DNA of 64,000 bases from Phycisphaerae bacterium (GTDB lineage Bacteria > Planctomycetota > Phycisphaerae > UBA1845), in NCBI GenBank assembly GCA_963675765.1, contig OY776568.1:2313407-2377406 (forward strand), read 5' to 3'. The notes beneath the pieces were generated by a model. The model was given only the letters and a program-made list of their open reading frames with translations. It was not told the DNA's origin and made no database searches. The position numbers and the translations under genes are program-made. This document shows, piece by piece, positions 2,151 to 60,464 of this stretch. Within the stretch, counting starts at the first letter, position 1. Each line of letters opens with the position of its first letter.

Positions 2151-2238
2151 AGCGTTACTGGTCCGAGTAAGCGTCAAACAACGAGAATCAACCGAAGGAA
2201 ACCGCGTCAGCCGCTTCACTTCACTAGAGCCCTCGCTA
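2151..2238 (+). repeat. About-90-bp structured intergenic repeat, copy A (forward)
   Basis: agcgttactggtccgagtaagcgtcaaacaacgagaatc...ccgcttcacttcactagagccctcgcta. It lies inside the rnf operon between rnfG and rnfE. Its last 3 nt are the rnfG stop codon. Confidence 0.8.
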
Positions 2239-2802
2239 GTGCAGTTTGCCAAGCTCCGGCTTCAGCTCCTTCGCCAGTTTGTTGACTATGTCGGTCACAT
2301 ACCTACTTGACCACGTGGCTCCCGTTATGGCTTGGATCTCGTTAGCTTCCTTGTTCCTCGGCCCCTTGACCACCTCGATCTTTCGCCCCGTGTCCAGATC
2401 CTTATATTGCCCAATCCACTCCGGCCCCAGAATCTTGTTACCCAGTCCCGGCGTCTCCTTGTTGTCAATCACTTTGACGCCCAGGATCGATTCGCCCTTC
2501 ACGTCAATGCCGGCCACCAGCTTAATCTTGTCAACAAACCCGCCACCTTCCGCCTGAACCGCCCAGCCGACCGGACGATTACTCTCATTGAGACATTTGA
2601 ACACCGTGCCGTCGAATCCCTCCGGAGTAACCTCCTCAGTCTTCACGGTACCAGGCACCACCTCGCGGATTGCCTGATTCAGGGCGGCATTCTCGTTTTC
2701 ACCTATACGATCGCTCAGGCTCATCTGCGCCGCGGCCAGCATGGCCCCGAAACTCAAGCCCATGACTACCACCAACCAAGATTCTCTAATGAACTTACTC
2801 AC
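2236..2802 (-). CDS. rnfG: RnfG, FMN-binding subunit of the Rnf complex
   Basis: 188 aa with an N-terminal membrane anchor and an FMN_bind-type domain. ITGATWSS is a flavinylation-type motif. Position between rnfD and rnfE. Confidence 0.85.
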   Translation of the reverse strand: MSKFIRESWLVVVMGLSFGAMLAAAQMSLSDRIGENENAALNQAIREVVPGTVKTEEVTPEGFDGTVFKCLNESNRPVGWAVQAEGGGFVDKIKLVAGIDVKGESILGVKVIDNKETPGLGNKILGPEWIGQYKDLDTGRKIEVVKGPRNKEANEIQAITGATWSSRYVTDIVNKLAKELKPELGKLH

Positions 2803-2835
2803 GATCTCACCGATCTCGTTATCTGTGGACCAATA

Positions 2836-3864
2836 CTACTCAACCGGCACACCACCGTACGGAGTGGGAGCCGTCCATCGCTCAATCAGCGGCGTCAGGG
2901 CATTCATGATTAGAATGGCAAACATGAATCCCTCCGGATACGCGCCGTATAACCGAATAACCATCACCAACACGCCGACACCAATACCGAAAATCAAGCG
3001 CCCCTTCGGTGTCAGCGGCGCCCCAACATAGTCAGTAGCGATGAAAAATGCTCCAAACATCAACGCTCCGCTCGTGAGGTGCTTCAACACATGCTCAGGA
3101 TTCCCTGTAGCAAGCGCCGCGAATACTATTACAGCTATGAACACTCCCAACGGTTGACGCCAGTCGGCCACTCGGCGAATTACCAAATACAAGCCGCCGA
3201 TCAATGCAGCCAACGCGCTTGTCTCACCTACACTGCCCCCCACATTACCGATGAATAAGTCCATGACCGAGGGCATGTCCTCCATCGCCTTCTGTGCCAA
3301 CGCCAACGGCGTAGCCATAGTGACTCCGTCGATCCCGGGATCACCAATCAAGTGCCGGCTGACCGGCTCGAGCCAATAACCCATGGCCGCGGGAAAACAA
3401 ACCATAAGAAATGCTCTTCCGACCATCGCTGGATTGAACAGATTCTGCCCAAGCCCGCCGAACACTGCCTTGGCTAAACCTATGGCCACCACACCCCCAA
3501 CAAACGCCATGTATGGCTGAAGTCCCGGCGGAAGAGAAAACGCCAATATCACTCCTGTCACCACTGCACTACCGTCACCCAGCGATGCCTGCGAACGTCC
3601 TCGCATCCAGTTACCCACCGCTTCAGCAAAAAGGCAACCGGCTACGGCACATCCCGTCAGAATCACCGCAAACTCCCGGTAAATCCAAACGGAAACGATG
3701 AACATCGGGAGCATTGCCAATACCACCTCAAACATAATCCGACGAGTGGTAACGGTGTCCGAAAGGTGGGGAGCGGCACTAACCAGAAACTGCCTATCCC
3801 GATTCCAGGTCGGAGTACTCTCTGCAGTAGCTGCCTGTTCGGGAATATTCGCTGCGTCACTCAT
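2836..3864 (-). CDS. rnfD: RnfD, membrane subunit of the Rnf complex
   Basis: 342-aa polytopic protein of the RnfD/NqrB family (GGSVGETSALAALIGG, FFIATDYVGAP). Operon position. Confidence 0.9.
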   Translation of the reverse strand: MSDAANIPEQAATAESTPTWNRDRQFLVSAAPHLSDTVTTRRIMFEVVLAMLPMFIVSVWIYREFAVILTGCAVAGCLFAEAVGNWMRGRSQASLGDGSAVVTGVILAFSLPPGLQPYMAFVGGVVAIGLAKAVFGGLGQNLFNPAMVGRAFLMVCFPAAMGYWLEPVSRHLIGDPGIDGVTMATPLALAQKAMEDMPSVMDLFIGNVGGSVGETSALAALIGGLYLVIRRVADWRQPLGVFIAVIVFAALATGNPEHVLKHLTSGALMFGAFFIATDYVGAPLTPKGRLIFGIGVGVLVMVIRLYGAYPEGFMFAILIMNALTPLIERWTAPTPYGGVPVE

Positions 3865-3890
3865 CGATCATCCTGCTCCTATTGGCCGGC

Positions 3891-5297
3891 TCAATCCTGC
3901 TTGGCCTTCTCAAGCGCCTCTTGCTCTTTCTTCTGTGCCACCAAAACCCGCCATTGGTTCTTGCCACTGCGAATGTACTGCGGAAGCGGTATCTGGGCCG
4001 GACATACGAAACCACAACAGCCGCACTCACAACAAGCCATCATGTTGATATCCGCGGCCAACTCGTAATTACGCGCCTTCACCGCCTGATAAACCTTCGT
4101 GGGCATAAGGTACAACGGGCAGTTATCAACGCATCGGCCACAACGAATGCAGCTCTTCTCCTCCTGCCGAGCAACCTCCGCCTTGCTCATCACCGTGATA
4201 CCACCCGTCCCCTTGACCACGGGAACATCCAGATTGGGCACACAAGGCCCCATCATCGGACCGCCGGCAAGAACTTTCTCTGCGTCAGCAGTCGTCCCCC
4301 CGCACGCATCAAAGAGATCAGCAAAAAGAGTCCCGATTGGGACAAGCAGATTACACGGTTTGGCAATTCCCTTACCCGTCACACTCACAACTCGGTGAGT
4401 CAACGGCTTATCTCGAACTATGGCCCGCGCAATCGAATGAGCAGTTGCCACATTCACCACTACCACACCCACATCAAGAGGAAGCCCCTTGGGAGCGCTC
4501 GGCACCGTGCGACCGGTCACCGCCGGAATCAACTGCCTTTCCCCACCCATCGGATACTTCGAGGCACACACAGTCACCTCGATTCCCGGCCGACCCGCCG
4601 CCGCTTTCCGCATCGACGCAATGGCATCCGGCTTGTTATCCTCAATACAAATCAACGCCCTCTTCGCCCCGGTTGCGTGTAAAGCCAACTGCAATCCGAC
4701 GACGATTCCCTCCGGACACTCCAACATAAGACGGTGGTCATTCGTCAGATAAGGCTCACACTCGGTGCCATTAAGCAACACCGTATCTACCGGCCGATCT
4801 GGGTTTTTCTTAAGCTTGATGAAAGTAGGGAATGTAGCTCCACCCAATCCCACTATTCCCGACGCCCGAATCTTTGTACATATCTCGTCCGGATCATAAG
4901 AAGTGGGCTCGACTCCGTCCCAATTCCTGTCGAGAAAATCGCTTAGGAAATCCGCCGGAACAGCTTCGCCTTCCGCTGGTAATTTCAACAAAATCGCCGG
5001 CACGCGACGCCCGCCGGGAATCATACACATCGTAGGTTGACCGACGACACCGTTAATCGACGCGTGGATGGGAGCAGAGACAAAGGCATCCGTGTCAGCT
5101 ACCTTGTCACCTATCTTCACTTCATCCCTGTTCTTCACTACCGGCTCACATGGCGCACCTATATGCTGAGCCATGGGAATAAGCAGATTCTCTTTGGGAA
5201 CAAAAAGCTGTATGGGCTCCGCCTCTGTGTACTTACGGTGCGGAGGATGAATACCTCGGTGAAAGCTCTTGGCACCACCTGACGTTGCCGTGCTCAT
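3891..5297 (-). CDS. rnfC: RnfC, NADH-side Fe-S subunit of the Rnf complex
   Basis: 468 aa with two ferredoxin motifs (CIRCGRCVDNCP, CCECGCCGFVCP) and a GLGGATFPT region. First gene of the rnfCDGEAB order. Confidence 0.9.
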   Translation of the reverse strand: MSTATSGGAKSFHRGIHPPHRKYTEAEPIQLFVPKENLLIPMAQHIGAPCEPVVKNRDEVKIGDKVADTDAFVSAPIHASINGVVGQPTMCMIPGGRRVPAILLKLPAEGEAVPADFLSDFLDRNWDGVEPTSYDPDEICTKIRASGIVGLGGATFPTFIKLKKNPDRPVDTVLLNGTECEPYLTNDHRLMLECPEGIVVGLQLALHATGAKRALICIEDNKPDAIASMRKAAAGRPGIEVTVCASKYPMGGERQLIPAVTGRTVPSAPKGLPLDVGVVVVNVATAHSIARAIVRDKPLTHRVVSVTGKGIAKPCNLLVPIGTLFADLFDACGGTTADAEKVLAGGPMMGPCVPNLDVPVVKGTGGITVMSKAEVARQEEKSCIRCGRCVDNCPLYLMPTKVYQAVKARNYELAADINMMACCECGCCGFVCPAQIPLPQYIRSGKNQWRVLVAQKKEQEALEKAKQD

Positions 5298-6912: not shown

Positions 6913-6920
6913 GCAAGTCA

Positions 6921-7010
6921 GAGCACTACTCGTCCAAGCGCGGCGTCAAACAATGACAGCCAACCGAAAAAACGGGGGGCAGACACTGCACTTGATAAGA
7001 GCTTGCTCTA
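6921..7010 (+). repeat. About-90-bp structured intergenic repeat, copy B (forward)
   Basis: gagcactactcgtccaagcgcggcgtcaaacaatgac...cagacactgcacttgataagagcttgctcta. It lies between the prepilin-type gene stop and the apbE start (8 nt from the apbE ATG). Confidence 0.85.
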
Positions 7011-7085
7011 TCGCGCCAATTGCCAGGCAGACCATCAGTCTACCAGGAAGCCTGGTTGGGGCCAGATCTGCTGCGTAAGTGTCAC

Positions 7086-7775: not shown

Positions 7776-7807
7776 ACGTCTTCCGCACGGAGTCACCAGG
7801 TAAGGCC

Positions 7808-9384: not shown

Positions 9385-9872
9385 AACGCACAGTGGGAGT
9401 TTGTGGGGAAAGAGAATCGGTCACGTCGTGTAGTTGGGTTGATCGACACCCCAAAAGAGAGAGATCGAGAGCTGTCGGTTCCCGCTGTGCCTAATTGGGA
9501 AAGCGCGGCAGGAACTGTTGTGTGGGTTTACCAGGCTTCTCTAGTTGGTCCATACTCTTCAGCGTGGTGACGGACGCTCGAAGAATGCACCAGCTTGAGC
9601 TGTGATTGTTCTCTCTCTTTGGAGGGCGTTGAAGGAAGCGGGCACTCGTGACAATCCGTTCCTGCTAATCTCAATCACCTCTAGCTTGTTCAATCGCAGC
9701 TGTTTTGCTGTACCGCGGATGCTGCTTGTTGCTGCGCCGTGGTTGTCGGATCGCCTTCTCGGGCCGTGCCCTAACGTGGGGTACGAGGTGAGAAGTCGAG
9801 ATATCTCTCTCGGGCATAACGTGTCGTGAATTCGGTACGCTATGCGTGGCTCTCTCTAGGAGGAGAATACAA

Positions 9873-10676: not shown

Positions 10677-10694
10677 ATTCATTCTGCTACTGAG

Positions 10695-12239: not shown

Positions 12240-12255
12240 CTACTGAGAAACTACA

Positions 12256-12345
12256 ACATTGCACGTCCAAGAGCAGCGTCAAACACCGAGAATCTACAAG
12301 AGAATACCGGGCACCAAACGCCACACTCGAATGGCGCCTGCTCTG
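12256..12345 (+). repeat. About-90-bp structured intergenic repeat, copy C (forward, diverged right end)
   Basis: attgcacgtccaagagcagcgtcaaacaccgagaatc...aaacgccacactcgaatggcgcctgctctg. It begins a few nt right of the IS target duplication. Confidence 0.75.
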
Positions 12346-12469
12346 CGGTCTGGCTTGATCTCCGCCCAACCTGAATGCAAGTTCGCACACCAGCGCAAAC
12401 AGCACCGAAAATTCTACAAACAATGTTAAGACAGAACCTCACCAACAAAAGAAGTGGGAACAGCCAGCC

Positions 12470-24881: not shown

Positions 24882-24943
24882 GAGTTGATCACCGATAGGA
24901 AGCCCTGGCCGTGACCTACGTCCGCCGATAAAGTCATCATTAT

Positions 24944-25034
24944 AGCGTTGTAAGTCCAAGCATAGCGTCCAACAATGAAAATCCGTCGGTGAAAACAGAG
25001 TGGCAGACGCTACACTTGAATAAAGCTTGCTCTG
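24944..25034 (+). repeat. About-90-bp structured intergenic repeat, copy D (forward)
   Basis: agcgttgtaagtccaagcatagcgtccaacaatgaaaatc...cagacgctacacttgaataaagcttgctct. It lies between the TPR gene and the first CNNM gene. Confidence 0.9.
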
Positions 25035-25098
25035 GCTGGGGCACTTGTGGTGCGAGCTGCCTGGTGCCCCGGCTGAGAGGCCGTTTCGGTTCACCCAA

Positions 25099-27335: not shown

Positions 27336-27342
27336 ACACTGT

Positions 27343-27432
27343 AACGCCGCAAGTCCAAACGTAGCGTCAGACCCCGGAACCCACCGGAGAAAACAGGTGT
27401 TCAGCCGCTGCACCTGAATAGAGCTTGCTCTA
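27343..27432 (+). repeat. About-90-bp structured intergenic repeat, copy E (forward)
   Basis: aacgccgcaagtccaaacgtagcgtcagaccccggaacccaccgg...cagccgctgcacctgaatagagcttgctcta. The terminal cta is the stop codon of the STAS gene. Confidence 0.9.
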
Positions 27433-27786
27433 GTCCCAGCAGAAGAAATCGTCCAGCTTGGTCACATGAAGCAGTTCCCGAACATTAGGGCGCAAATTGA
27501 GTACCCGAATGCGACCTTCACGACCCGAGGCCTTCCGCACCGCCAGCATCGCCCCCAATTGCTTCGAACTGATCGCCGGCAGCCCCTCCAAATCAACCTC
27601 TATCTCACACTCAGATAGTTTGCCCGAATGAGACTCGATTACATTCGCCAACATTCGTTCCAGATTGGGAGGGTATTGTTCCCCGGCCTCAAAAAACTCC
27701 TGGTCAAAACGAAATGTAGCCTTCGAAGCCTCACAGGTAACGTGGAATGGAGGGACTTCGATTATCTCCGCCATGATGATCCTCAC
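27430..27786 (-). CDS. STAS-domain protein (anti-sigma-factor-antagonist-like)
   Basis: 118 aa. VDLEGLPAISSKQLGAMLAVRKA...IRVLNLRPNVRELLHVTKL fits the STAS fold pattern. The stop codon is the terminal cta of repeat copy E. Confidence 0.5.
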   Translation of the reverse strand: MRIIMAEIIEVPPFHVTCEASKATFRFDQEFFEAGEQYPPNLERMLANVIESHSGKLSECEIEVDLEGLPAISSKQLGAMLAVRKASGREGRIRVLNLRPNVRELLHVTKLDDFFCWD

Positions 27787-27877
27787 AAACTGAGAAAACT
27801 CGACGCTCGCATATCCATTATGTCTACACAGCCCCAGCCCCGCAAGATCATCTCCCCCCGCCCCACTGAAGCACCGG

Positions 27878-27968
27878 GGCGCCGTTCATCCTGGTGCCAC
27901 AGCAAACAATGAAAACCCTGCAGAATAAACGGGCCTTGAGAGGCTACACCTGAATAGTGCTTGCTCTA
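27878..27968 (+). repeat. About-90-bp structured intergenic repeat, copy F (forward, diverged left arm)
   Basis: ggcgccgttcatcctggtgccacagcaaacaatgaaaac...gaggctacacctgaatagtgcttgctcta. It ends 5 nt before the Smr gene stop codon. Confidence 0.8.
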
Positions 27969-27973
27969 ATCCT

Positions 27974-32932: not shown

Positions 32933-32990
32933 AGCCTGCTCCATCCCTGTTATTGCATAAGTCATTCCGGCGAATGCTGAAACTTGCGAT

Positions 32991-33078
32991 AGCGTTGTAA
33001 GTCCAAGCACAACGTCAAGCGATGAGAATCTATCGGAAGAAATGTGGTGTCAGACGCTACGTTTGGATTAGTAACGCT
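32991..33078 (+). repeat. About-90-bp structured intergenic repeat, copy G (forward, variant with a fully complementary right arm)
   Basis: agcgttgtaagtccaagcacaacgtcaagcgatgagaatc...cagacgctacgtttggattagtaacgct. The two ends form an AGCGTT..TAA.TCCAA terminal inverted repeat. Confidence 0.85.
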
Positions 33079-33080
33079 GT

Positions 33081-33110
33081 AAAAAAGCGGCCTCGAATAA
33101 CCGAGACCGC
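33081..33110 (-). terminator. Rho-independent terminator of pfp
   Basis: The minus strand reads GCGGTCTCG-gttatt-CGAGGCCGC followed by TTTTTT, 38 nt after the pfp stop. It abuts repeat copy G. Confidence 0.75.
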
Positions 33111-34560: not shown

Positions 34561-35066
34561 GATTACTCCTTCCTGACCTCCAACAAGAGGCCATCACTTA
34601 CACATGACCGTCAGCCGCTCCAGCGGCGGCCAACAACCGATAAGACCGCGCCCAATGTCAACCTCCCCAACGCGTCCGACACGCCCCAATATGGACATAT
34701 TTCACACGCTGTCAAGGCGAGCACGCCGCAACAAAACAGAGCATAACCTACTAACCACCAAGAACTTACGCACGCACGCCATAATTGCTACGCCGGTAAG
34801 CGTAACTTCAAAAACAAAACCTCCAGCCAACCTGCAACTCTCATCAACAGATCTCCCAGTAGCAGTCGCACCCACTCGCCGCCATACTCTTACGCCGATT
34901 GGGAATTCTCCTGCAAACACTCTCCCCTGACCCATCACAATCCACACTAGATGCCACCACCAAAAAATCTTCTGTCGATTCTCTGCATTGCGCTATAATT
35001 AGGCCACGAAGCGGAGCGAGGCTCCCTCCAGATTAAGGCTCTGACATGGGCAATCTGGACCGCTAT

Positions 35067-36636
<1,570 letters not shown>

Positions 36637-39295: not shown

Positions 39296-39321
39296 GACCG
39301 CAACCTCTAAAGCGTTACCAC

Positions 39322-39428
39322 AGCGTTATCAATCCAAACGTAGCGCAAACCACCGACGCTCGACCGGAGAAAACCAAGATCCACACGCCCTCGAAAACGC
39401 CGCAACACTCAAGTAACACTCTCCATTA
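39322..39428 (+). repeat. About-90-bp structured intergenic repeat, copy M (forward, with an insertion of about 17 bp)
   Basis: agcgttatcaatccaaacgtagcgcaaaccaccgacgctcgaccggagaaaac...aacgccgcaacactcaagtaacactctccatta. It lies between the ECF sigma gene and its anti-sigma gene. Confidence 0.7.
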
Positions 39429-42350: not shown

Positions 42351-42361
42351 ACCGCTTCTGC

Positions 42362-42452
42362 AGCACTGTTAGCCCAAGCGCAGTATCAAACACAAGAATC
42401 TACGGGAAAAGACCGAGGGGGGCCAAACGCTACACTTGGGCTTATAACCTAT
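42362..42452 (+). repeat. About-90-bp structured intergenic repeat, copy N (forward, diverged right end)
   Basis: agcactgttagcccaagcgcagtatcaaacacaagaatc...ccaaacgctacacttgggcttataacctata. It lies between the convergent MCP and HTH genes. Confidence 0.75.
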
Positions 42453-43127: not shown

Positions 43128-43142
43128 TCTATGTCTCCTCAA

Positions 43143-43194: not shown

Positions 43195-43404
43195 ATTCCT
43201 AAAAAGGGCGCGGACCATCCCGACTTCCCAAGCCATCCGAGCAGGATACCCCTTGATCGTGCCGATCAGAATGATCCTTTTCCTCCCACACACAATCACC
43301 CACCACAACCCCAACAATACGAACAACTTACGAACATTAAGAGAAATAATATTGACATAACCGGAGAACCAAAGTATGTTAGGAATATGTGCGGGCTACT
43401 GGGC

Positions 43405-43493
43405 CGATAGTCCCCCTCACACAGCGTCAAACAACCCGGACCCTCCGCAGATAACCGGGCGTCAGACGCTGCAAACGAACGATGCCTGCTCCA
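43405..43493 (+). repeat. About-90-bp structured intergenic repeat, copy O (forward, diverged)
   Basis: ...cacacagcgtcaaacaacccggaccctccgcagataaccgggcgtcagacgctgcaaacgaacgatgcctgctcca. It lies 125 nt upstream of the hypothetical gene at 43619. Confidence 0.7.
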
Positions 43494-43618
43494 GCCGCTC
43501 GCACCGTTGGCCGGATTCATACGCTGCCAAATCACCACCCGTCCGTCAGGTGGGAGAATAACCGTACCCGGTGCGTACACCGGATAAGAGGCCCTCACGT
43601 CAGAAAGGAAACGAAGCC

Positions 43619-46540: not shown

Positions 46541-46562
46541 ATGTTCACTCGCAGATGAACAT
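46541..46562. promoter_or_regulatory. Inverted repeat just upstream of the coiled-coil gene
   Basis: ATGTTCA (46541-46547), 8 nt, then TGAACAT (46556-46562). It ends 36 nt before ATG 46599. Confidence 0.35.
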
Positions 46563-46598
46563 GTCAGTCCACTAGACGCCCTATTCAAGGAGACCATC

Positions 46599-52189: not shown

Positions 52190-52226
52190 AATCTTCACTC
52201 TTGCACGAAATCTGGTTTTTACCAAT

Positions 52227-53363
52227 TCAGTCTCGCAACACCACAAGATCATCGCGATGAACAACCTCTTCCATGTACCTATATCCCAGCAACAAGGCAA
52301 TCTCGGCACACTTGTGGCCGCGGATTCTATCCACTTCATCCGAGGCGTAAGAGGCGAGCCCTCGGGCAATCAGTTGCCCGTTGTCCTGGCAGACCTTGAC
52401 AACAGCCCCTGCGGAGAACCTGCCATCGACGGCCAATATTCCCGACGGCAGCAGGCTGGCATTTCGTCTCACGATAGCTTCGGAGGCTCCGGAATCAACG
52501 ATAAGGGTCCCCTCTGGCCGAGCAACTGATGCAATCCACCGTCGCCGGGCATCGAGCTTACTAACGCGGGGGGCAAAGAGTGTCCCCACGGGCCGGCCTG
52601 CGAAAATGTCGCTCAAGACTCCGTTTCGCCTTCCACCGGCGATAATCGTCGGCACGCCGGCATCACCGGCCAAGACAGCAGCGTCAACTTTTGTCTTCAT
52701 TCCGCCGATGCCGGTTTCACTTTTAGCTGCCTGAATATGGCCATGTGCACTTTCAGTGGCCAACACCATTCGGATCAGCTCGCCGTGTGGTCCACCGGAG
52801 CGTAGCCCTTCGACATCAGTAAGCATTATAAGGAGATCGGCCGAGATTAGCGTTGTTACCAGAGCAGAAAGGTGGTCGTTATCGCCGAGTCTGATTTCGT
52901 CGTAGGAAACGCTATCGTTCTCATTAACTACTGGAACGATACTTCTAGCCAGAAGAGTTTGCAGGGTATGCCGGGCATTGAGATAGCGTCCGCGGCTATT
53001 GATGTCGTCAGCGGTGAGTAGCACCTGAGCCACGTGGATTCCGGCTCGTGCAAACACGGTGGACCAGGCATTCATAAGGGTCTGCTGTCCGATGGCAGCG
53101 GCGGCCTGCCGATCAACTATAGTACGAGGCATGCGCTGCAATCCCATGGCCGCAAGTCCGGAGGCAACTGCGCCGCTGGACACAATGACAACATCCCGGC
53201 CAGCGTTTTTGAGGGCAATCACTTCTTTTCCTAGTCGCGTAATGGCCCGCTTATTCAGTTGCCCTGCTTTTGTCAGGACTGCGCTACCGATTTTGATCAC
53301 TATCAATCGTGAGCGTTCGACATACTGTCTGTTGCAGGCTTTCCTTTCGTTTTCCAATGCCAA
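52227..53363 (-). CDS. proB: Glutamate 5-kinase with a PUA domain
   Basis: 378 aa. IVIKIGSAVLT, VIVSSGAV and VNENDSV are amino-acid-kinase motifs. C-terminal PUA-like domain. TTG start at 53363. Confidence 0.9.
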   Translation of the reverse strand: MALENERKACNRQYVERSRLIVIKIGSAVLTKAGQLNKRAITRLGKEVIALKNAGRDVVIVSSGAVASGLAAMGLQRMPRTIVDRQAAAAIGQQTLMNAWSTVFARAGIHVAQVLLTADDINSRGRYLNARHTLQTLLARSIVPVVNENDSVSYDEIRLGDNDHLSALVTTLISADLLIMLTDVEGLRSGGPHGELIRMVLATESAHGHIQAAKSETGIGGMKTKVDAAVLAGDAGVPTIIAGGRRNGVLSDIFAGRPVGTLFAPRVSKLDARRRWIASVARPEGTLIVDSGASEAIVRRNASLLPSGILAVDGRFSAGAVVKVCQDNGQLIARGLASYASDEVDRIRGHKCAEIALLLGYRYMEEVVHRDDLVVLRD

Positions 53364-53513
53364 TAAACTCCTGCAAAGGCCAATTAAACCAGTAAAGGGT
53401 CATCTTGTTTTTCACCAAAACTCTGCAATCGTTGCTTGAAAACTGAGTGCGGCACGGTTAGTTTGAGGATCCTGTCTCACATTGGCATAATAAGTCCGTA
53501 GGAGGATCATCTC

Positions 53514-54518
53514 ATGGACGCGTCAAGCGTTTCCTCACTGACAACGGTCGCCCAGCATATCATCGAACAACAGCGAAATCATCCCACAGCTTCCGGGCAG
53601 TTTAGTTGGCTGCTCAGCGGCGTCACGCTGGCGACGAAGATCATCGAGTCTTACGTCCGTCGCGCTGGTATTGCGGATGTATTGGGAGCCACAACGAGCA
53701 CGAATGTGCAAGGCGAACAAGTGCAGAAGCTGGATCAGATTGCCAACGAGACAGTTAAGCGCTGCCTGGGGTATAGGGGAAACGTCGGTATTTTGGTATC
53801 GGAGGAGGAGGACGAGCCAAAGGTAATCAAGGAGGCAGGAAGGGAAGGGAAGTACATTGTGCTTTTCGATCCCCTCGACGGATCAAGTAACATTGATGTC
53901 AACGTTTCGGTAGGGACGATATTCTCGATCTTGCAGGTTCGCGACGATCTTGACGAAGATGCTTCAGCCGAGGACCACACGCTTCAGCCGGGGATTAACC
54001 AATTGGCTGCAGGTTACGTCGTTTACGGCAGCAGTACAGTATTGGCTTACACAACCGGCGACGGAGTGCACATGTTCACTCTCAACCCGGAAATAGGGGC
54101 ATTTGTGCTACATCAAGAGCGCGTTACGATGCCACCAGAGGGAAAGATGTACAGCATCAACGAGGCCTACAAAGCGAGTTTTCCCAAGGGGGTACGTGAT
54201 TATCTTGATTGGGCAAAACAAGACGATTATTCGCTGCGATACATCGGATCACTGGTCGCCGATTTTCACCGAACACTGCTTCGCGGCGGGGTTTTTCTAT
54301 ATCCCCCCACAGCCAAGCAGCCGGAGGGCAAGTTGAGACTGCTTTACGAAGCCAACCCCATGGCTTTTCTTGCAGAGCAAGCGGGCGGAGCAGCGACGGA
54401 CGGCAAGGTACGCCTAATGGAAAAACAGCCCACAAAGTTGCACGAGCGGACGCCACTGATCATAGGCAGCAGGAAGGAAGTATCCCGAGTCCATGATTTC
54501 CTGAACGGCGACAAATGA
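53514..54518 (+). CDS. fbp: Fructose-1,6-bisphosphatase class 1
   Basis: 334 aa. AGGAGG RBS. Motifs are FDPLDGSSNIDVNVSVGTIFSI, LRYIGSLVADFHRTL and GGVFLYP. Confidence 0.9.
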   Translation: MDASSVSSLTTVAQHIIEQQRNHPTASGQFSWLLSGVTLATKIIESYVRRAGIADVLGATTSTNVQGEQVQKLDQIANETVKRCLGYRGNVGILVSEEEDEPKVIKEAGREGKYIVLFDPLDGSSNIDVNVSVGTIFSILQVRDDLDEDASAEDHTLQPGINQLAAGYVVYGSSTVLAYTTGDGVHMFTLNPEIGAFVLHQERVTMPPEGKMYSINEAYKASFPKGVRDYLDWAKQDDYSLRYIGSLVADFHRTLLRGGVFLYPPTAKQPEGKLRLLYEANPMAFLAEQAGGAATDGKVRLMEKQPTKLHERTPLIIGSRKEVSRVHDFLNGDK

Positions 54519-54527
54519 CGACATCAA

Positions 54528-56141
54528 TCAAATAGGAACCTGCTCGCTCCCAACGAAGCTGCCAACGGGCCGATCACCACATCGCAATTCATCGCGCATT
54601 GCAAGCCAAACGGAAAGTTGATCACGTCCTATTGGATTATTTCCAAGGCACGCGATTTCGATAGCAGAGGCGGCGTTTCCCAAATACGCAGCACCGACAA
54701 GCGAGGCTCCGGCAGCCAGAGACATAGATGCCACCGTAAGCATAGCATCACCACAGCCAAGTCTATCAAGGCATGAATTAGCAAATGAGGGAAAGTGTTC
54801 GCTTAGCAGCCGGTCACCCCACTCTTCAGATCGAGGGTCCTGAGAGGGGCGTTCAAAGACAACCAATCCCCGTTTTCCCAATGTGCAAAGTATGTGACGA
54901 GCCTGATTTTGATTGATAAGTTCGTAGGCTACTGACGACAGTCCAGACTCAAAGTCATGCAGAGTAGTTCTCAACTCTCTCTCGGTGGGGCAAAGGAGAT
55001 CTACATGGCGGTAGTTCAAGAGGTTACCACGGGAGCCACTCACATCACCCGCGAGGACGGGCACATTAGCTCGCAGACACGGCAGCACTCTAGAGAGAAG
55101 AGAGGCATTCACGGCGCCGTAACCGAAATCGCAGATGATGGCGACGTCAACATCACGGGACAAGCGTTCGAGGATAGCGGACACGTTCTTCTCTGCGTGT
55201 GAATCGAGAGGAGTGTTTTCGCCGTGCTCCACTTTGAAGATCTTGTTTTCCTCAACGAGGTAGCGGGTCTTGTGGACTAGATGTGGTCTGGTTTTTACTG
55301 CAGCCAGTTCGACACCTTCACTTGCCAGGATTGAATTTACTCTGGCGCTGCACTGATCCCGAGCCACATTACTGACCAGAGTCACATGGGCTCCCATTGC
55401 CGCTGCGTGGCGAGCCACTATTGCCGCCCCACCCAGGTACTCCTGCTCGCTAAGTTGTAGAAGTGAGAGCATTGGCGATTCTGAAGCGACATCAACCGCA
55501 TCGCACGAGACATAGCGATCAACAATGACGTCACCCAGGACTGCCACCTTCATACCGCGGAACCTGCTGACGACATTGAGGAGAGAGGCCTGCTCAAGAT
55601 CGTGTCGTTGGCAGATGAGTTTCAGTCGCTGGGCGGCCAGTTGCTTGTCTCGTGGGAGCGAAGCTATCAACTCACTGGAACTGAAGACAACATCGCCACT
55701 GGAAAAGATCACGCGGCCGCCGTAAGCCTCGACCTCTGAGCGTTCGGCGAGGAACCTGGGATCGTCAGATGTTTCGTACTCTCGGCCTTTGACATAGACG
55801 TCGGGTTTGACGGCACGGAGCAGGTCCACTGCTGTCGGAGCGCGGTCAACGCAAACGTAGTCGACAAACTCAAGAGCGGCGAGTGATTCAGCTCTCAATT
55901 CCTCTGGAATATAGGGTCGCTGATCCCCCTTGTTGATCTGCGAATCACCTGTGACAGTTACAACCAAAATGTCGCCCTGGCGGCTAGCGAATTCCAAGTA
56001 TCGCAAATGTCCGGGATGAACAATATCGAAGCAGCCATGGCACTGCACCACGGTCAATCCGTCTTGCCGTCGCTCCTCCAGAACAGTAAGTAAAGCATTG
56101 CGTTGTAAGATTTTGCGGATATGGGTAGCGGAATCCTTCAT
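54528..56141 (-). CDS. Bifunctional cytidylyl/adenylyltransferase-like (N-terminal) + PfkB-family sugar kinase (C-terminal); HldE-like but in reversed domain order
   Basis: 537 aa. The N-terminal GCFDIVHPGHLRYLEFA is the HxGH nucleotidyltransferase motif. The C-terminal ribokinase-like domain ends with DRLGCGDAM (DTxGAGD-type). Confidence 0.75.
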   Translation of the reverse strand: MKDSATHIRKILQRNALLTVLEERRQDGLTVVQCHGCFDIVHPGHLRYLEFASRQGDILVVTVTGDSQINKGDQRPYIPEELRAESLAALEFVDYVCVDRAPTAVDLLRAVKPDVYVKGREYETSDDPRFLAERSEVEAYGGRVIFSSGDVVFSSSELIASLPRDKQLAAQRLKLICQRHDLEQASLLNVVSRFRGMKVAVLGDVIVDRYVSCDAVDVASESPMLSLLQLSEQEYLGGAAIVARHAAAMGAHVTLVSNVARDQCSARVNSILASEGVELAAVKTRPHLVHKTRYLVEENKIFKVEHGENTPLDSHAEKNVSAILERLSRDVDVAIICDFGYGAVNASLLSRVLPCLRANVPVLAGDVSGSRGNLLNYRHVDLLCPTERELRTTLHDFESGLSSVAYELINQNQARHILCTLGKRGLVVFERPSQDPRSEEWGDRLLSEHFPSFANSCLDRLGCGDAMLTVASMSLAAGASLVGAAYLGNAASAIEIACLGNNPIGRDQLSVWLAMRDELRCGDRPVGSFVGSEQVPI

Positions 56142-56168
56142 CGCCGACTGTTCCCCTGCAGGATGGCC

Positions 56169-56257
56169 TAGAGCAAGCTCTATTCCAGTGAAGGACTACA
56201 GCCCTGGTCTCTCCAGGCTTCAATGATAGTCCACGCCGCCAACCCCTCGAGAACGCC
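56169..56257 (-). repeat. About-90-bp structured intergenic repeat, copy H (reverse)
   Basis: The + strand reads tagagcaagctctattccagtgaaggactacagccctggtctctccaggc...gagaacgcc. It lies 27 nt upstream of the kinase-fusion gene start. Confidence 0.75.
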
Positions 56258-56482
56258 ATAGGCATACCAATACTGGCCTATGCAGTTTTATCGGTCCTGG
56301 GCCGCAATCGCTGCAGAGCAACTCTCGGCTGAGGGACTTTGGTTGCTTTTGGCCCTCGAATACCTACCATGATCCGATTCGTTACACAATGGTGTGCCGA
56401 TTGGAAGGATCTAATAGCGGTAGTAATACGTACTGATTGAGGCATTCATCCAGCCGTTCAGAGAATTACGTCTACCTGTCAC

Positions 56483-56573
56483 TAGAGCAAGCTCTATACG
56501 AGTGTAGCGTCAGGGCCCCGGCTTATTCCGGTGGGTTTCATGTTTGACGCTGCATTTGGGCGAGTTAGGCACT
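56483..56573 (-). repeat. About-90-bp structured intergenic repeat, copy I (reverse)
   Basis: The + strand reads tagagcaagctctatacgagtgtagcgtcagggccccggcttattccggtgggtttcatgtttgacgctgcatttgggcgagttaggcact. It lies 36 nt upstream of the first LptF/G-family gene. Confidence 0.9.
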
Positions 56574-56609
56574 GAGGCAAGGTGACAGCTTGGAGACTCG
56601 CCACAGGCC

Positions 56610-58238
56610 ATGCTTTGGACCCTGCAGAAATATATTTTTCGTGAGATGGGTAAGTCATTCCTGCTCACCGCCGTCGGTCTGATAGTGGTCTTGGGGCTAG
56701 GCGGAGGGGTGATGAACATGATCGAGCTGGAGGGTGTAACAGCCCTGCAGATCCTTCGTCTAATGGGACTGGTTTTGCCAGTAGCCGCCTCTCTGACACT
56801 GCCGATCGCAGCCTTGTACTCAGCCACGGTCACGTATGGTCGGCTCAGTGCGGACAACGAGTTCGTAGCTTGCAGGAGCGGGGGCATTAACCTGCACATT
56901 CTGTTGCTACCGACTTTGGTAATAAGTCTGTTCTCTGCATTGTGTTCTTTCTTTTGCATCAACTTCGTGATCCCTGGCATGATCATGAACATAGACCGGT
57001 TTGTCACGACAGACATGCCTCGGTTCATCAAGCAGCAGTTGGCAGCACCTGGCCGGCTAGCTCTGAAGGGGGACAACTACCGCATTTACGCAGACAAGAG
57101 CGAGATTCGGCAGGAAGCGACTGACTCTGGTGACGCGACGGAGCTGCACGTCGAGGGCGTCGCGTTTGTTGAGATGGACGACGGCAAATGGACGCGTTTC
57201 GGGACGGCTGAGTCAATTGAGATAGCATTCACTTCTCCGGGAGACGTTCCGACGATCGCGGCCAATATGTATGAGTTGAGCATCTACGATGCCAAGACTG
57301 GTCGCTACTCTGATTTTCACCACGAATCGATCGGCCAGTATCCGATTCCGGAGAAGTTTCCCCTGGAAGTCAAATGGCTGGTTTTGGGCGACCTGCTACG
57401 CTATCGGCAGCAGCCATCCTTGTTCCCAGAGATTGACCAGAGTTTAGTATTTCTACGAGCAGCGGTAGCGCGAGCTATCTTTTATGCGGAGATCAAGAGG
57501 CAATTTCTCGCATCGGGAGAGGTGGTGTTTGGGGATAAGCAAACACAGTTCCGAGTGCGGTCGCGCACTCTGAGTCCGGACCCTCAGGACAACCGGCCAA
57601 GGTTCGAGGAGAATCTAGAGATTGTGGAAACACGCTCTGATGGGCTAATCAGGACGATAACAGCGGACTCCGCGTTTATGAAGGTAGCCGAGTCCAAAGC
57701 GCAGCAAGCAGTGTGCGTATCGCTGGAGGCGAACGGCAATGTTGAGATAACCACAAACAGGTTTCCTGAGGCAAGAACCAAGCGCAACCACGAAAAGTTG
57801 ACTCCGGTCAAGCTGCCGGATGAAGTCGTGCACCAGGCATTATCGTTTCCGACGGACAGACTCCTGGACTCCAGCGGAAAGTCATTGGGATTGGGAACAC
57901 TAGTAGACAAAAGGAAGGCAGCCCTTCTGGAGGACATTGCGAAGTTAACCAGAGACATCACAGGAGAGTTGCATTCAAGGTTGGCGATAAGCGTGAGTGT
58001 TTTCGTGCTGGTGATTCTCGGGGCCGCATTGGCGATTGTCCTGCGAGGTTCGCAGGTTCTAGTTGCATTTGGAATCAGTTTCATCCCATCACTGTTCGTA
58101 ATCAGCACGATCATCATGGGGAAACAGTTGATCGACAATCCAGAGACGCTCACGACGGGCATAAGTGTGGTATGGCTGGGAATCGTGGTTACAGGGATAA
58201 TAGACTTGGTTATTCTAACCAAGGCTTTGCGGCGATAG
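56610..58238 (+). CDS. LptF/LptG-family (YjgP/YjgQ) permease, long form
   Basis: 542 aa. MLWTLQKYIFREMGKSFLLTAVGLIVVLGLG is the typical family N-terminus. Six TM segments with an enlarged periplasmic domain. Confidence 0.8.
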   Translation: MLWTLQKYIFREMGKSFLLTAVGLIVVLGLGGGVMNMIELEGVTALQILRLMGLVLPVAASLTLPIAALYSATVTYGRLSADNEFVACRSGGINLHILLLPTLVISLFSALCSFFCINFVIPGMIMNIDRFVTTDMPRFIKQQLAAPGRLALKGDNYRIYADKSEIRQEATDSGDATELHVEGVAFVEMDDGKWTRFGTAESIEIAFTSPGDVPTIAANMYELSIYDAKTGRYSDFHHESIGQYPIPEKFPLEVKWLVLGDLLRYRQQPSLFPEIDQSLVFLRAAVARAIFYAEIKRQFLASGEVVFGDKQTQFRVRSRTLSPDPQDNRPRFEENLEIVETRSDGLIRTITADSAFMKVAESKAQQAVCVSLEANGNVEITTNRFPEARTKRNHEKLTPVKLPDEVVHQALSFPTDRLLDSSGKSLGLGTLVDKRKAALLEDIAKLTRDITGELHSRLAISVSVFVLVILGAALAIVLRGSQVLVAFGISFIPSLFVISTIIMGKQLIDNPETLTTGISVVWLGIVVTGIIDLVILTKALRR

Positions 58239-58266
58239 GGAGCCGGCCAAGGCGATTAGAAGCTCC

Positions 58267-59379
58267 ATGGGCATTATAGATAGACACATAATCAAGGGTT
58301 TGCTGGCCAACTACCTCATTGCGATCGGCGTAATGATCAGCTTGTACATAGTGCTCGATCTGTTTTTCAACATGGACGAGTTTACGGAGAGCGTTTCGGG
58401 CACGACGGATGTGATGCTCGATATTGTGAGTTTCTACGGCGCTCGCGTTTTTCTCTATTTCGCCCAGCTGTCTGGAGTAATAACGCTTTTTGCATGTCTA
58501 ATCACGCTGGCCCGAATGCGACAGCAGCGAGAGCTTATCGCAGTGCTTGCGTCAGGCGTAAGCCTTTACAGAGTAGCTGCGCCAGTTATGGCTTTTGGGT
58601 TGGCGACCACTGCCATGTGGTATGTGGATACAGAGTTGATCATTCCTTCGATAGCGCACAAACTTGCCAGACGGCACGATGATGCCCGAGGTCTCAAAAC
58701 CTATGGAGTTTGGTTTCTTCAAGACCGCGATGATGCCCTTCTCTCCGCACAGCAGTATGTACCTGGCGAAGGAACGATCAAACGGCTGTTGGTGATAAAG
58801 CGAAACGAAACCGGGCACTTATCCAGCATCATTGAAGCGGAGCGAGCGACATGGGAACCGTCTACAGACAATAGTGAGTTCCTGGGGACATGGAAGCTCG
58901 AACGGGGTACAGAGAAGACCAGAATTGAAGAAACAGGAGACAGCCTCGCGCCGCAGGGAGACTTCGTGAGCAGCCTAATCGCCAGTTATCCAAGCAATCT
59001 TGATCCGAAGACGATCGAAATGCGACAGTCAACCGGATGGATACGTTATCTGAGTTCCATGCAATTGAAGGAGTTGGCGAACCGGGCTGAGGGATACACA
59101 TTGGAGCAAATCCAAGATGCCCGTCATTCTCGTTTCACGACTCCCATTGTGAGCCTGATCATGCTCGCATTGGGTTTACCATTTGTTTTGGACCGGATAC
59201 CTGCAGGAGTCGTTGCTGCAGGCAGCAAGAGTTTGTTAGTGTGCGGTTCGTGTTTTCTAGTAGCGTTTGTTTCACAAAGCATTGGCAGCCCAACGCATCT
59301 TTCCGCGTTGCCGGCGTGGCTTCCGGTTATCATCTTCGCACCCATAACAGCTGTTCTGTTCGATCGAATTCGCACATAG
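58267..59379 (+). CDS. LptF/LptG-family (YjgP/YjgQ) permease
   Basis: 370 aa. The N-terminus is MGIIDRHIIKGLLANYLIAIGVMISLYIVLDLF. Adjacent paralog of the previous gene. Confidence 0.8.
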   Translation: MGIIDRHIIKGLLANYLIAIGVMISLYIVLDLFFNMDEFTESVSGTTDVMLDIVSFYGARVFLYFAQLSGVITLFACLITLARMRQQRELIAVLASGVSLYRVAAPVMAFGLATTAMWYVDTELIIPSIAHKLARRHDDARGLKTYGVWFLQDRDDALLSAQQYVPGEGTIKRLLVIKRNETGHLSSIIEAERATWEPSTDNSEFLGTWKLERGTEKTRIEETGDSLAPQGDFVSSLIASYPSNLDPKTIEMRQSTGWIRYLSSMQLKELANRAEGYTLEQIQDARHSRFTTPIVSLIMLALGLPFVLDRIPAGVVAAGSKSLLVCGSCFLVAFVSQSIGSPTHLSALPAWLPVIIFAPITAVLFDRIRT

Positions 59380-59594
59380 AGTGGCCATGAATCTCGGTCA
59401 ACACAGACTCCCTTTTTTCGTTGTCTGATGTAGAGGTCCAGCGGGAAGCGATTTGCCCGGAATGAGGCACATGGTCTGTCCTCTGGTGAGCATGGAAGGC
59501 AAAAGAAAGCCGGACGCCGATTTCCTTCCTCAGGTCCCTTGGCAGCAATCGGACTCTGCCGAGGGAGATCGGACGTCGATCTCGGGGCACGTTA

Positions 59595-59685
59595 TGTAGC
59601 AAGCTCTATCCAAGTGCAGCGGCTGAACGTCCGTCTTCCCCGGTAGATTCCGGTGGTTTGACGCCCCGTTAGGATTAGCAGCGTT
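59595..59685 (-). repeat. About-90-bp structured intergenic repeat, copy J (reverse)
   Basis: The + strand reads tgtagcaagctctatccaagtgcagcggctgaacgtccgtcttccccggtagattccggtggtttgacgccccgttaggattagcagcgtt. It lies between the second LptF/G-family gene and tdk. Confidence 0.9.
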
Positions 59686-59736
59686 ATGTGAGATAGTTGC
59701 TTCACATTCGATGCTCCGGCTGGCACAATCTGGGCC

Positions 59737-60345
59737 ATGAATAGCAATACAGAGGGCAATGGAGTCCACACGGCGGTTTCGCGTGGCAGCGTCGAATTGA
59801 TCTGCGGATGCATGTTCAGCGGAAAAACTACTGCTTTGCTGCAGCGGTTAGAACAGGACGAGGCGAGATGCATTCTAGTAATCAAGCACACGAAGGATGC
59901 TCGATACTCGCGCACGCGAATAATGACGCACGACGGTCATGGCTGTGACGCGGTGTCGGCAGCGGAGGCAGAGGACATCATCCAGCAGACATCTGAGTCG
60001 ACGGAGGTTGTGGCCATCGATGAGGGCCACTTCTACGACGAGAAATTGCCGGAGGTTGTCGACAGGCTGGCAAATGCGGGTAAGCGTGTGCTGATCACCA
60101 CTCTGGATATGGACATGTGGGGCAGACCATTTCCAATAATCCAGGAGATTGAGCGGTTGGCCACACGTGTAAGTCGGCAATTGGCTAGGTGCGCGGTGTG
60201 TGGCCAACCAGGAACACACACTCAGAGAAGAACGCCGATTGTTAATCGCAACCTTGTTGGTGGAAGTGATGATTTTGAACCCAGGTGTGGGACATGTTGG
60301 AGGCCGCCACCCGAGTCCCCCATTGATAGTAATGAAATGGCATAA
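59737..60345 (+). CDS. tdk: Thymidine kinase
   Basis: 202 aa. P-loop GCMFSGKTTALL, IDEGHF, and a C-terminal Zn ribbon CAVCG...CGTC. Confidence 0.9.
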   Translation: MNSNTEGNGVHTAVSRGSVELICGCMFSGKTTALLQRLEQDEARCILVIKHTKDARYSRTRIMTHDGHGCDAVSAAEAEDIIQQTSESTEVVAIDEGHFYDEKLPEVVDRLANAGKRVLITTLDMDMWGRPFPIIQEIERLATRVSRQLARCAVCGQPGTHTQRRTPIVNRNLVGGSDDFEPRCGTCWRPPPESPIDSNEMA

Positions 60346-60372
60346 GCTGCGCCGCAGGCGGCTTTCCGCTCT

Positions 60373-60464
60373 GAGAAATAAGCTCCATTCAGGTATAGCC
60401 TCTGAAGCCTGGCTTTCCCCAGTGGATGGTCGACGCTTGACGCCACGTTTGGATTAACAACGCC
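60373..60464 (-). repeat. About-90-bp structured intergenic repeat, copy K (reverse)
   Basis: The + strand reads gagaaataagctccattcaggtatagcctctgaagcctggctttccccagtggatggtcgacgcttgacgccacgtttggattaacaacgcc. It begins 27 nt after the tdk stop. Confidence 0.8.

Follow-up and report, generated by a model that had tools for sequence, protein, structure and literature searches.

A family of REPIN- or MITE-like palindromic repeats oriented with strand composition in a Phycisphaerae chromosome

To our knowledge, the interspersed repeats of Planctomycetota are almost undescribed. Among the bacterial systems studied so far, repetitive extragenic palindromes (REPs) are defined by a GT[AG]G motif that lies 5' of a hairpin foot, at a distance of 0-2 nt, the hairpin having a paired stem of 7-20 bp (PMC6006769), and REP doublets, or REPINs, are mobilised by Y1 transposases of the REP-associated tyrosine transposase group (RAYT, or TnpA-REP) (PMC6006769, PMC3733652). 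'Double-foot' REPs of the form GTAG...CTAC have been published, hairpin repeats with a CnGA foot adjoin class 3 Y1 genes in Planctomycetes, and Y1 enzymes target the lagging strand, which is the pattern of IS608 and ISDra2 (PMC6006769). In this study we describe a repeat family of about 95 bp residing in a 64,000-nucleotide stretch of the chromosome of a Phycisphaerae bacterium (assembly GCA_963675765.1, contig OY776568.1, positions 2,313,407 to 2,377,406; hereafter the window). Judging from sequence comparisons, it is apparently an undescribed element family of the known MITE/REP class (MITE, short for miniature inverted-repeat transposable element). Its unusual feature is a uniform orientation with respect to the strand composition bias, not to the neighbouring genes.

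The existence of this repeat family was confirmed by several searches. Its 19-nt core has seven matches in the window at three or fewer mismatches, against 0.03 expected, and an iterated nhmmer profile identified 13 full copies in the 64 kb with E-values of 1e-20 to 1e-30. An unfiltered covariance model (R1), applied to the whole window, returned the identical 13 full copies at 63-101 bits and added two partial features, one of them a degenerate copy (39318-39410, 27 bits) and the other a solo right arm (56168-56207, 18 bits). This gives a total of 15 features spanning 2147-60468, approximately one per 4 kb, which make up 2.1% of the window sequence. An earlier reading, made from the sequence only, had listed 15 copies, all of them intergenic; nhmmer and R1 found these copies again, far beyond chance, and their placement was upheld on a map of Pfam-checked genes (15/15, copies A and E sharing 3 nt with a stop codon). 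When trimmed from CTA to TAG, the full copies are 93-96 bp long, with a mean column identity of 72%. They are non-coding, as direct reading of the reverse-complement (RC) strand reveals stops in all three frames within the first 33 nt. The features are given below with their R1 scores; loci labelled L0xx were fetched from other genomes and contigs, L024-L029 being the six loci of the closest relatives, and GC3 skew denotes GC skew at third codon positions.

2147..2239, + strand: copy A, inside the rnf operon in the rnfE/rnfG spacer (70.8 bits); at its junction the rnfG stop codon is the terminal TAG of the right arm, and L024-L029 have the empty site
6918..7011, + strand: copy B, in the spacer of apbE and orf246, both - strand genes (80.8 bits)
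12251..12346, + strand: copy C, in a convergent spacer, with an IS5/IS1182-like insertion sequence (IS) terminating 3 nt from its left end (79.8 bits)
24940..25035, + strand: copy D, flanked by + strand genes for a TPR protein and a CNNM transporter (Pfam) (92.9 bits)
27339..27433, + strand: copy E, with a right arm ending in the TAG that serves orf118 (27430-27786, - strand) as stop codon (89.7 bits)
27874..27969, + strand: copy F, in the spacer of orf118 and an Smr gene, both - strand (74.1 bits)
32987..33082, + strand: copy G, a 'homodimer' variant (68 bits on one strand, 27 on the other)
35063..35158, + strand: copy H, in the divergent PFK/GDH spacer, nearest to the consensus (100.9 bits)
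39318..39410, + strand: copy I, degenerate, with a decayed right arm and a recognisable left arm and core (27.2 bits; nhmmer E=1e-6)
42358..42450, + strand: copy J, immediately 3' of a + strand MCP gene, with the right-arm palindrome lost (63.1 bits)
43399..43494, + strand: copy K, 5' of the + strand orf1244 (71.8 bits)
52200..53600, no strand: switch of strand composition, where the GC3 skew changes sign between proA and proB
56168..56207, - strand: solo right arm CACTGGAATAGAGCTTGCTCTAG, the first of the copies to be oppositely oriented (17.8 bits; right-arm hidden Markov model (HMM), E=5e-4)
56482..56575, - strand: copy L, in a divergent spacer, upstream of lptF (77.6 bits)
59594..59689, - strand: copy M, in the spacer of lptG and the thymidine kinase gene, both + strand (79.5 bits)
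60373..60468, - strand: copy N, in the convergent spacer of the thymidine kinase and DHQ synthase genes (70.8 bits)

Between 2 and 43.5 kb all of the copies (11/11) are on the + strand, and between 56.1 and 60.5 kb all (4/4) are on the - strand, with the flip occurring between the end of the last + copy (43494) and the start of the first - copy (56168); the unfiltered covariance-model search of the window detected no copy in the opposite orientation. Bulk GC skew ranges from -0.07 to -0.40 up to 52 kb and is positive, at +0.07 to +0.08, beyond 56 kb; cumulative G-C has its minimum at 53594. In the left part (880-52264), which runs from rnfA to proA, all Pfam-supported host genes have a + strand GC3 skew of -0.16 to -0.71 irrespective of their own strand, e.g. 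GDH (+) -0.52, MCP (+) -0.54, PFK (-) -0.56 and the ECF sigma factor gene (-) -0.71, and in the right part (52227-63686), from proB onward, it is +0.02 to +0.27, so that the flip falls inside the proBA operon. Since the sign of GC3 skew is independent of the gene strand, the skew is a property of the DNA strand and not of transcription. The relatives have an absolute skew of less than 0.09 over 20 kb.

Copy orientation agrees with the sign of the skew in 15 of 15 cases, the probability of which is about 6e-5 given a single switch point and 15 independent orientations. The agreement with gene direction is at chance level: in spacers between tandem genes, five copies (A, B, F, I and M) have the RC strand as sense strand and three (D, J and K) as antisense strand, copy D being a clean case in which the forward strand is sense. 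Convergent spacers are occupied in 4/5 and divergent ones in 2/7 cases. In every window copy the well-folding, G/T-rich strand lies on the G-rich strand, irrespective of the strand of the neighbouring genes. As a rule, the G-rich strand is the leading strand; on this assumption, the well-folding RC strand would always be located on the lagging-strand template.

The element is an imperfect palindrome, in which two inverted arms of about 28 nt, with CTA...TAG bounds, enclose a variable core of about 40 nt. In the orientation of the sequence-only reading, the left arm is CTATAGCGTTGTAAGTCCAAGCGTAGCG(TC) and the right arm (GA)CGCTACACTTGAATAGAGCTTGCTCTAG, i.e. the complement of CTAGAGCAAGCTCTATTCAAGTGTAGCG. 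The arm signatures are CTAGAGCAAGCTCTATTCAAGTG and CTATAGCG..CAAGYGTAGCG, and the core includes the block AAACAAYGAGAATC as well as a short GC hairpin whose loop is A-rich. The two arms match each other at 18 of 28 positions, mostly in the inner YCAAGYGTAGCG: 11 of the inner 13 nt are matched, against 5 of the outer 14 nt, where terminal inverted repeats (TIRs) would lie. The right arm contains a 7-2-7 palindrome, CTAGAGC-TT-GCTCTAG. On the RC strand the arms form a stem of 17-19 bp (TTCAAGTGTAGCGTCTG / TTGACGCTAYGCTTGGA), in which four positions are G-U/G-T pairs that become A-C mismatches on the forward strand, and the RC strand is the more stable one in 11 of 13 copies. The motif GTAG is near-invariant (alignment columns 23-26) and paired with CTAC, and the stem that follows it consists of four to five perfect pairs, then a mismatch. 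On the same strand, C-T-G-A stands at the 5' foot of the central hairpin. Decay and variant forms include the left-arm homodimer (copy G, matched at both ends by the left-arm HMM) and solo right arms at 56168-56207 and in L005. The alignment bore out the consensus proposed from the sequence alone, together with the GTAGCGTC/GACGCTAC pairing (9-13 of 13 copies paired per position), the view that the C-A oppositions are wobbles on the complementary strand, the TAGAGC-TT-GCTCTA end and the presence of a left arm at both ends of copy G. The block GCGTCAAACAAYGAGAATC, which had been put forward as the best conserved, retains this status in the subfamily of the window genome only; across genomes the conserved module is the right-arm palindrome.

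Filled and empty sites show that the copies, as far as their junctions can be read, were inserted in intergenic DNA at TA, usually within CTAG and often at the TA of a stop codon. The rnfG-rnfE spacer, which houses copy A, measures 112 nt in the window, compared with 23-77 nt in the six relatives. The sense strand of the window reads CAC-TAG-CGAGGG...AACGCTT-TAG-ATATGCG-TAGGAGATAGAAGTCC-ATG at this place, and the equivalent spacer of L024 reads CAA-TAA-TCGTTGC-TAGGAGATAAAGGTCC-ATG. If 89 nt are taken away, corresponding to the element with one TA or, what amounts to the same, with one TAG, a spacer of 23 nt is left, the length found in L024 and L025. The in silico excision restores a stop codon, 7 nt and TAGGAGATA..ATG, exactly colinear with L024/L025 and with the Shine-Dalgarno region aligned. 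The comparison of the empty and filled sites thus fits a target-site duplication with TA...TA flanks, from which a TA (or TAG) target joined to a 3' TAG carried by the element itself would be indistinguishable.

The TAG in front of AGCAAGCTCTATTCAAGTG is exactly where six genes terminate, two of them in the window (rnfG and orf118) and the others in L004, L005, L007 and L011, with one gene per locus. The base before these junctions is variable (C, C, T, C, C or A), which indicates that the TA belongs to the host stop codon and that the element provides the G. In the window subfamily and that of OFTM174 (see below), the left arm (TA-TAGCG) would convert the stop codon to TAT, and this may be why only right arms abut genes. 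Most copies are flanked by C-TA...TA-G, and abutting copies overlap by CTAG (L010, tail to tail; L004, head to head; L005). CTAG is strongly under-represented in the window, with 68 occurrences where base composition predicts 236 and a second-order model 94, and 7 of these 68 sites (about 10%) are within the elements, i.e. in 2% of the sequence.

Related copies appear to be patchily distributed across at least four other Phycisphaerae lineages. The exact 21-nt pattern of the right arm was found at 16 loci in three Planctomycetota metagenome-assembled genomes (MAGs), two of them annotated as Phycisphaerae/Phycisphaerales and one, CSMAG_2921, as Planctomycetota only, and on 7 metagenome contigs; the host MAG accessions are JAJDDV01 for OFTM174 and JACKHG01 for HK-STAS-PLAN-12. 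A scan of viral contigs (IMG/VR) with the pattern gave no copy. The foreign copies have the same architecture and ends combined with different interiors and left arms, and represent at least four subfamilies. ATAGAGCTTGCTCTA is near-invariant in the copies of OFTM174, HK-STAS-PLAN-12, CSMAG_2921 and L022. Copies that were not selected by the pattern also carry (A/G)ATAGAGCTTGCTCTA(G/A/C), which identifies the right-arm palindrome as the invariant module. The GC content of the elements is 0.51-0.62 and that of their hosts 0.60-0.68. No copy was found in the six loci (about 121 kb) of the closest relatives, whose RnfE proteins are 75-86% identical, which makes the distribution a patchy one. A comparison of HK-STAS-PLAN-12 with conspecific metagenome contigs revealed no presence/absence polymorphism. 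An inverted pair of copies in L022 was considered as the ends of a transposon; the enclosed gene encodes a small membrane protein, and no transposase.

Other repeats were observed at the fetched loci. In L016 (5953-6169, - strand) a copy of the OFTM174 type is split by an unrelated 119-bp MITE with TIRs GAGSCTRTCCCAA (19 bp), which generated a clean TA duplication inside CGC-TA-CACTTG. This MITE is present in one copy only among the fetched loci, and its termini (GAGC...) resemble the terminus of the right arm. L024 (RnfE 86% identical), devoid of the window repeat family, contains a REPtron-like unit in which a gene for a 224-aa RAYT-like Y1_Tnp protein is flanked by inverted doublets of AAACCGGGACAGGTTCGGTTAT, each of about 100 bp:

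L024, 14827-14926, 18806-18902, 18907-19581 and 19596-19633: REPtron-like unit

The Y1 family of this protein has at least 8000 database homologues, many of them named Planctomycetota transposases or REP-associated tyrosine transposases. L025, from another close relative and also without the window family, carries canonical GTAG-headed REPs (GTAGGTCGGATCGTTGATCCGAC) and a GTAG...CTAC REPIN-like doublet (3970-3994, 4125-4149, 12246-12315).

Taken together, the orthologous empty site, the TA/CTAG flanks, the stop-codon insertions, the dispersed non-coding copies, the inverted arms and the conserved ends with variable interiors make it very probable that we are dealing with a non-autonomous mobile element of the MITE/REPIN class, and not with an RNA gene; the REP/BIME-, PATE- or MITE-like nature suggested by the sequence-only reading is upheld (BIME, bacterial interspersed mosaic element; PATE, palindrome-associated transposable element). 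No sequence match was obtained in Rfam, in 5,426 complete Escherichia coli genomes (blastn, word size 11), among PLSDB plasmids (BLAST with copy H) or in IMG/VR, and a full-text literature search for the palindrome, covering 8 million papers, returned unrelated primers only. The element is therefore not ERIC, REP, BIME or RIB, given the lack of any match in the E. coli genomes, and the previous statement that it belongs to no named family holds for all of these resources.

One close likeness is to REPINs. Two inverted units of about 28 nt separated by a spacer form an imperfect palindrome of about 95 bp, i.e. a hairpin in the size range of 100 bp, and occur as heterodimers, a homodimer (copy G) and singlets produced by decay. 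The copies are numerous, intergenic, diverged and long-persisting, GTAG...CTAC brackets the inner stem, and a sister genome (L024) has a RAYT-like gene placed between doublets of about 100 bp. Unlike in REPINs, the GTAG of the element is base-paired on the inner side of each arm instead of forming a free 5' foot, the arms are unequal in sequence, with only the right one having its own hairpin in the window genome, and the flanks are TA/CTAG. The element falls outside the strict definition of REPs, since its GTAG is paired with CTAC and the stem measures 4-5 bp, and the 'double-foot' likeness is loose. We know of no report of replichore-locked orientation in REPINs.

The element also resembles Correia/NEMIS, ERIC/IRU and the IS630-derived MITEs (RUP), which are non-coding imperfect palindromes of 90-150 bp forming long hairpins. 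Like TA-targeting MITEs, it is intergenic, often located just after stop codons, flanked by TA and found in nested or abutting insertions. It is small (<300 bp), non-coding and dispersed, as MITEs are, and departs from them in lacking good terminal TIRs, its terminal 14 nt being poorly matched, in lacking a known parent IS and in the strict strand-locked orientation seen in the window. No sequence similarity to this group emerged from the BLAST search of the E. coli genomes, in which Correia, RUP and BOX were not directly aligned. A third group, the IS200/IS605 elements and PATEs, shares with it the strand-asymmetric fold, the location of the folding strand on the presumed lagging-strand template, as in IS608/ISDra2 (PMC6006769), and the lack of a clear duplication beyond a short sequence, which is possibly the target plus the cleavage site. 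Members of this group have no TIRs, bear direct subterminal hairpins and insert 3' of a 4-5 nt target without duplicating it, whereas the window element has inverted arms and TA(G) on both sides. By definition PATEs have same-strand hairpins and no TIRs; in our element only the right arm has a hairpin (TAGAGC-NN-GCTCTA). The orientation typical of PATEs is displayed by 15 of 15 copies, provided that the G-rich strand is the leading strand.

A family of RNAs, as understood in Rfam, should show statistically supported covariation and a fixed orientation with respect to transcription, and the repeats show neither. It had been proposed that the central hairpin covaries. For the 13 window copies and an explicit structure of 30 pairs, 78.7% of the cells are paired compared with 77.9% in column shuffles, and 89 of 500 shuffles are equal or better, so that this covariation has no statistical support and the pairing reflects conserved palindromic sequence, not compensatory change. 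In an alignment of 34 sequences from several genomes the proportion of paired cells is 80.6% against 77.7% in shuffles, with 0/500 shuffles as high and two-sided changes at 18 pairs, in an alignment that was fitted to the model, that joins related sequences and in which several of the two-sided changes are the arm swap of copy G. In the HK subfamily the left arm has become CCACCTGTAGCG and the right arm is still CACTTGAA; the outer stem is thus uncompensated. Selection on an RNA fold is not demonstrated by these data. Searches of Rfam gave no match to the element, either at gathering thresholds (whole window) or at E<=5 (10.5 kb holding five copies). Promoter or terminator functions were considered and dismissed, as the elements contain no sigma-70-like or intrinsic-terminator-like sites above background, and the spacing of 21 nt in an internal TTGACG...TATAG is too long for a promoter. 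GC hairpins resembling terminators, GCCGGAAAACGGTTTTCCGGC (35172-35192) and CGGTTATTCGAGGCCG (33088-33103), each followed by a T-run, adjoin copies H and G, respectively, and copy G is situated past the terminator-like hairpin of PFK (33103-33088); some copies therefore lie just outside transcription units.

We propose that the family is a REPIN-like element moved by a single-strand, replication-coupled Y1 route (RAYT/Y1-like), to which we assign a probability of roughly 0.45. In this scheme a trans-acting HUH-Y1 tyrosine transposase, either RAYT/TnpA-REP-like or of the planctomycete 'class 3' type, would cut the element out and insert it at the replication fork, in the form of a single-stranded DNA hairpin. 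With transposition coupled to the fork in this way, the active strand would always be found on the lagging-strand template, and long single-strand exposure would also explain the extreme GC3 skew of the region. The copies would be old (72% mean column identity), and any RNA-level effects on neighbouring genes a by-product. Conserved ends with a drifting interior across distant Phycisphaerae are the pattern expected when ends are recognised by a trans-acting enzyme, and a strand-asymmetric fold together with a strand-locked orientation is a prediction of IS200/IS605-type and, presumably, REP/RAYT-type transposition. Enzymes of this sort abound in the clade, with the Y1_Tnp gene of L024, the REPs of L025 and the many Y1 homologues as examples. 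As looser leads, the GTAG...CTAC motifs around the inner stem may recall 'double-foot' REPs, and the C-T-G-A foot the CnGA foot. Several observations weigh against this proposal. A tblastn search of the window and the element-bearing loci with the L024 Y1 protein revealed no Y1/RAYT gene flanked by the element, and the link with such an enzyme is one that we infer. Among the best 120 of at least 8000 homologues of this protein, none comes from the 5,446,402-bp contig that encodes an RnfE 100% identical to that of the window. The arms lie in inverted and not in direct orientation, in the window subfamily the left one forms no hairpin by itself, and GTAG is paired next to a stem of 4-5 perfect pairs instead of being a free foot. 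The orientation rule comes from one 64-kb window with a single switch point, at which there is neither dnaA/dnaN nor a DnaA-box cluster. Moreover, the skew is lopsided, amounting to about 0.3-0.5 on the left side and to about 0.1-0.2 on the right side, which makes the reading of the switch as a replication origin an assumption. Adjacent copies of opposite orientation occur in L004, L010 and L022, and in other genomes orientation is unrelated to the local GC3 skew (6 against 6 loci), in a comparison confounded by the coding strand, which dominates the skew there. Finally, TA(G) on both sides with shared CTAG is the classic signature of TA-duplicating DDE transposases of the IS630/Tc1 type, and one host genome contains the nested 119-bp MITE with its clean TA duplication.

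This signature leads to a different, less likely but serious explanation, namely that the repeats are double-strand MITEs of the Correia/ERIC type, moved by cut and paste through a DDE transposase of IS630/Tc1-like (or IS5/IS427-like) type, which targets and duplicates the TA of CTAG, the known target of IS630. The C-TA...TA-G flanks of most copies, the exact empty site with one TA obtained from copy A, the six insertions in stop-codon TA, the nested MITE with its 19-bp TIRs and right-arm-like GAGC... termini and the patchy occurrence among relatives are all consistent with such a history, and adjacent copies share CTAG as if each insertion recreated the target. Polarity would then have to be explained by selection acting on inserted copies, by a target preference coupled to the clamp or fork, or by chance, given the small sample; the agreement of 15/15 copies with the skew, regardless of gene strand, is unexpected for a palindromic target. 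In addition, five matches in the outer 14 nt of the arms are poor for the TIRs of a DDE element, and no transposase gene with the ends of the element was detected in the window or in about 270 kb of loci. It is improbable that the repeats are domesticated cis-acting elements of the chromosome, whose palindrome CTAGAGC-NN-GCTCTAG and unpaired GATTCTC bind host proteins, with mobility accounting for their origin only and polarity selected relative to replication. BIMEs bind gyrase, IHF and Pol I, and KOPS and Chi are polar with respect to replication. An orientation locked to the skew, a high and even density (about one per 4 kb, with 4/5 convergent spacers occupied), the retention of copies that are old (72% identity) and a right-arm palindrome kept near-invariant over genomes of 52-68% GC while the remainder drifts would suit such a role, but the closest relatives manage without a copy in about 121 kb, which speaks against an essential clade-wide function. 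Inverted adjacent pairs in other genomes, the decaying copies (I, J and the solo arm) and the lack of a known binding protein point the same way. The probability is very low that the repeats are structured RNA modules (3'-untranslated-region stabilisers, processing sites or small RNAs) selected for their fold, as the sequence-only reading had also envisaged. The long RC-strand hairpin with G-U pairs, the cross-genome excess of pairing and two-sided changes over shuffles (80.6% vs 77.7%, 0/500) and the position of several copies directly after stop codons are what such modules might show. Set against this are the non-significant covariation in the window, the fitted cross-genome alignment of related sequences, the constancy of the right arm where the HK left arm changes without compensation, the missing Rfam match and the mixed orientation relative to transcription (5 vs 3 in the window, about 5 vs 6 in other genomes), with copies in divergent spacers and, in the case of copy G, beyond a terminator-like hairpin.

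The gene content of the window is that of a bacterial chromosome and includes genes for the Rnf complex, ApbE, ComEC, sulfatase-TPR proteins, an ECF sigma factor, LptFG and ProAB. The only IS in the window (about 10690-12243; IS5/IS1182-like) encodes a DUF772 + DDE_Tnp_1 transposase (10773-12221), has TIRs ..AGTCGTCCCTGAA and a 4-bp ACTG duplication, and has its insertion point 3 nt away from copy C's left end. The GC3 skew of its transposase gene is 0.01 in a strongly skewed region, which indicates a recent arrival. As a mobiliser of the repeats this IS was rejected, since its TIRs and 4-bp duplication are unrelated to the element. The sole additional R1 match below E=0.05 outside the element copies (9872-9923, opposite orientation) corresponds to the signal-peptide coding region of a PEP-CTERM protein gene and is not an element. 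This gene (9874-10571, + strand) has a strong ribosome-binding site, a signal peptide and a PEP-CTERM-like C-terminal motif, PEPASLALLGLGLASMGIAWRRR; the longer - strand open reading frame (ORF) overlapping it (9840-10451) is probably spurious. No Pfam domain was detected in the + strand ORF of 1244 aa at 44007-47741, the coding strand of which is very rich in C (skew about -0.3); a 38% tblastn match in L010 is its sole support, and the ORF may be real or an antisense artefact. The long + strand ORF 277-825 is an antisense shadow of rnfB, and its translation gives tblastn matches of 30-39%, antisense to rnfB, in five relatives, which constitutes a trap for homology-based gene calling.

The family provides a usable marker, with a covariance model, for the annotation of Phycisphaerae genomes and MAGs, in which repeats of this kind break assemblies and mislead the calling of genes and start sites. 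The insertion into the TA of stop codons, with the G of the new TAG supplied by the element, illustrates how such elements persist in gene-dense genomes. The strand-locked orientation combined with the extreme local GC3 skew is the part that is worth following. We consider it unlikely that this REPIN-like hairpin, moved by a planctomycete Y1/HUH enzyme, keeps its active strand on the lagging-strand template across the whole 5.4-Mb chromosome, in about a thousand co-oriented copies and in a genome whose GC3 skew reaches 0.5-0.7. If it did, this would be the first REPIN/MITE family with an IS608-like replichore polarity, and it would either connect an unusually long exposure of single strands at the fork with mutation bias as well as with the spread of repeats, or mark the domestication of a repeat as a polar signal of chromosome architecture. 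A genome-wide orientation rule would also make the family a test case for REPIN-like movement via the lagging-strand template, as in IS200/IS605, and would turn it into a natural indicator of the direction of replication, in a phylum about whose origins and replication biology little is known.

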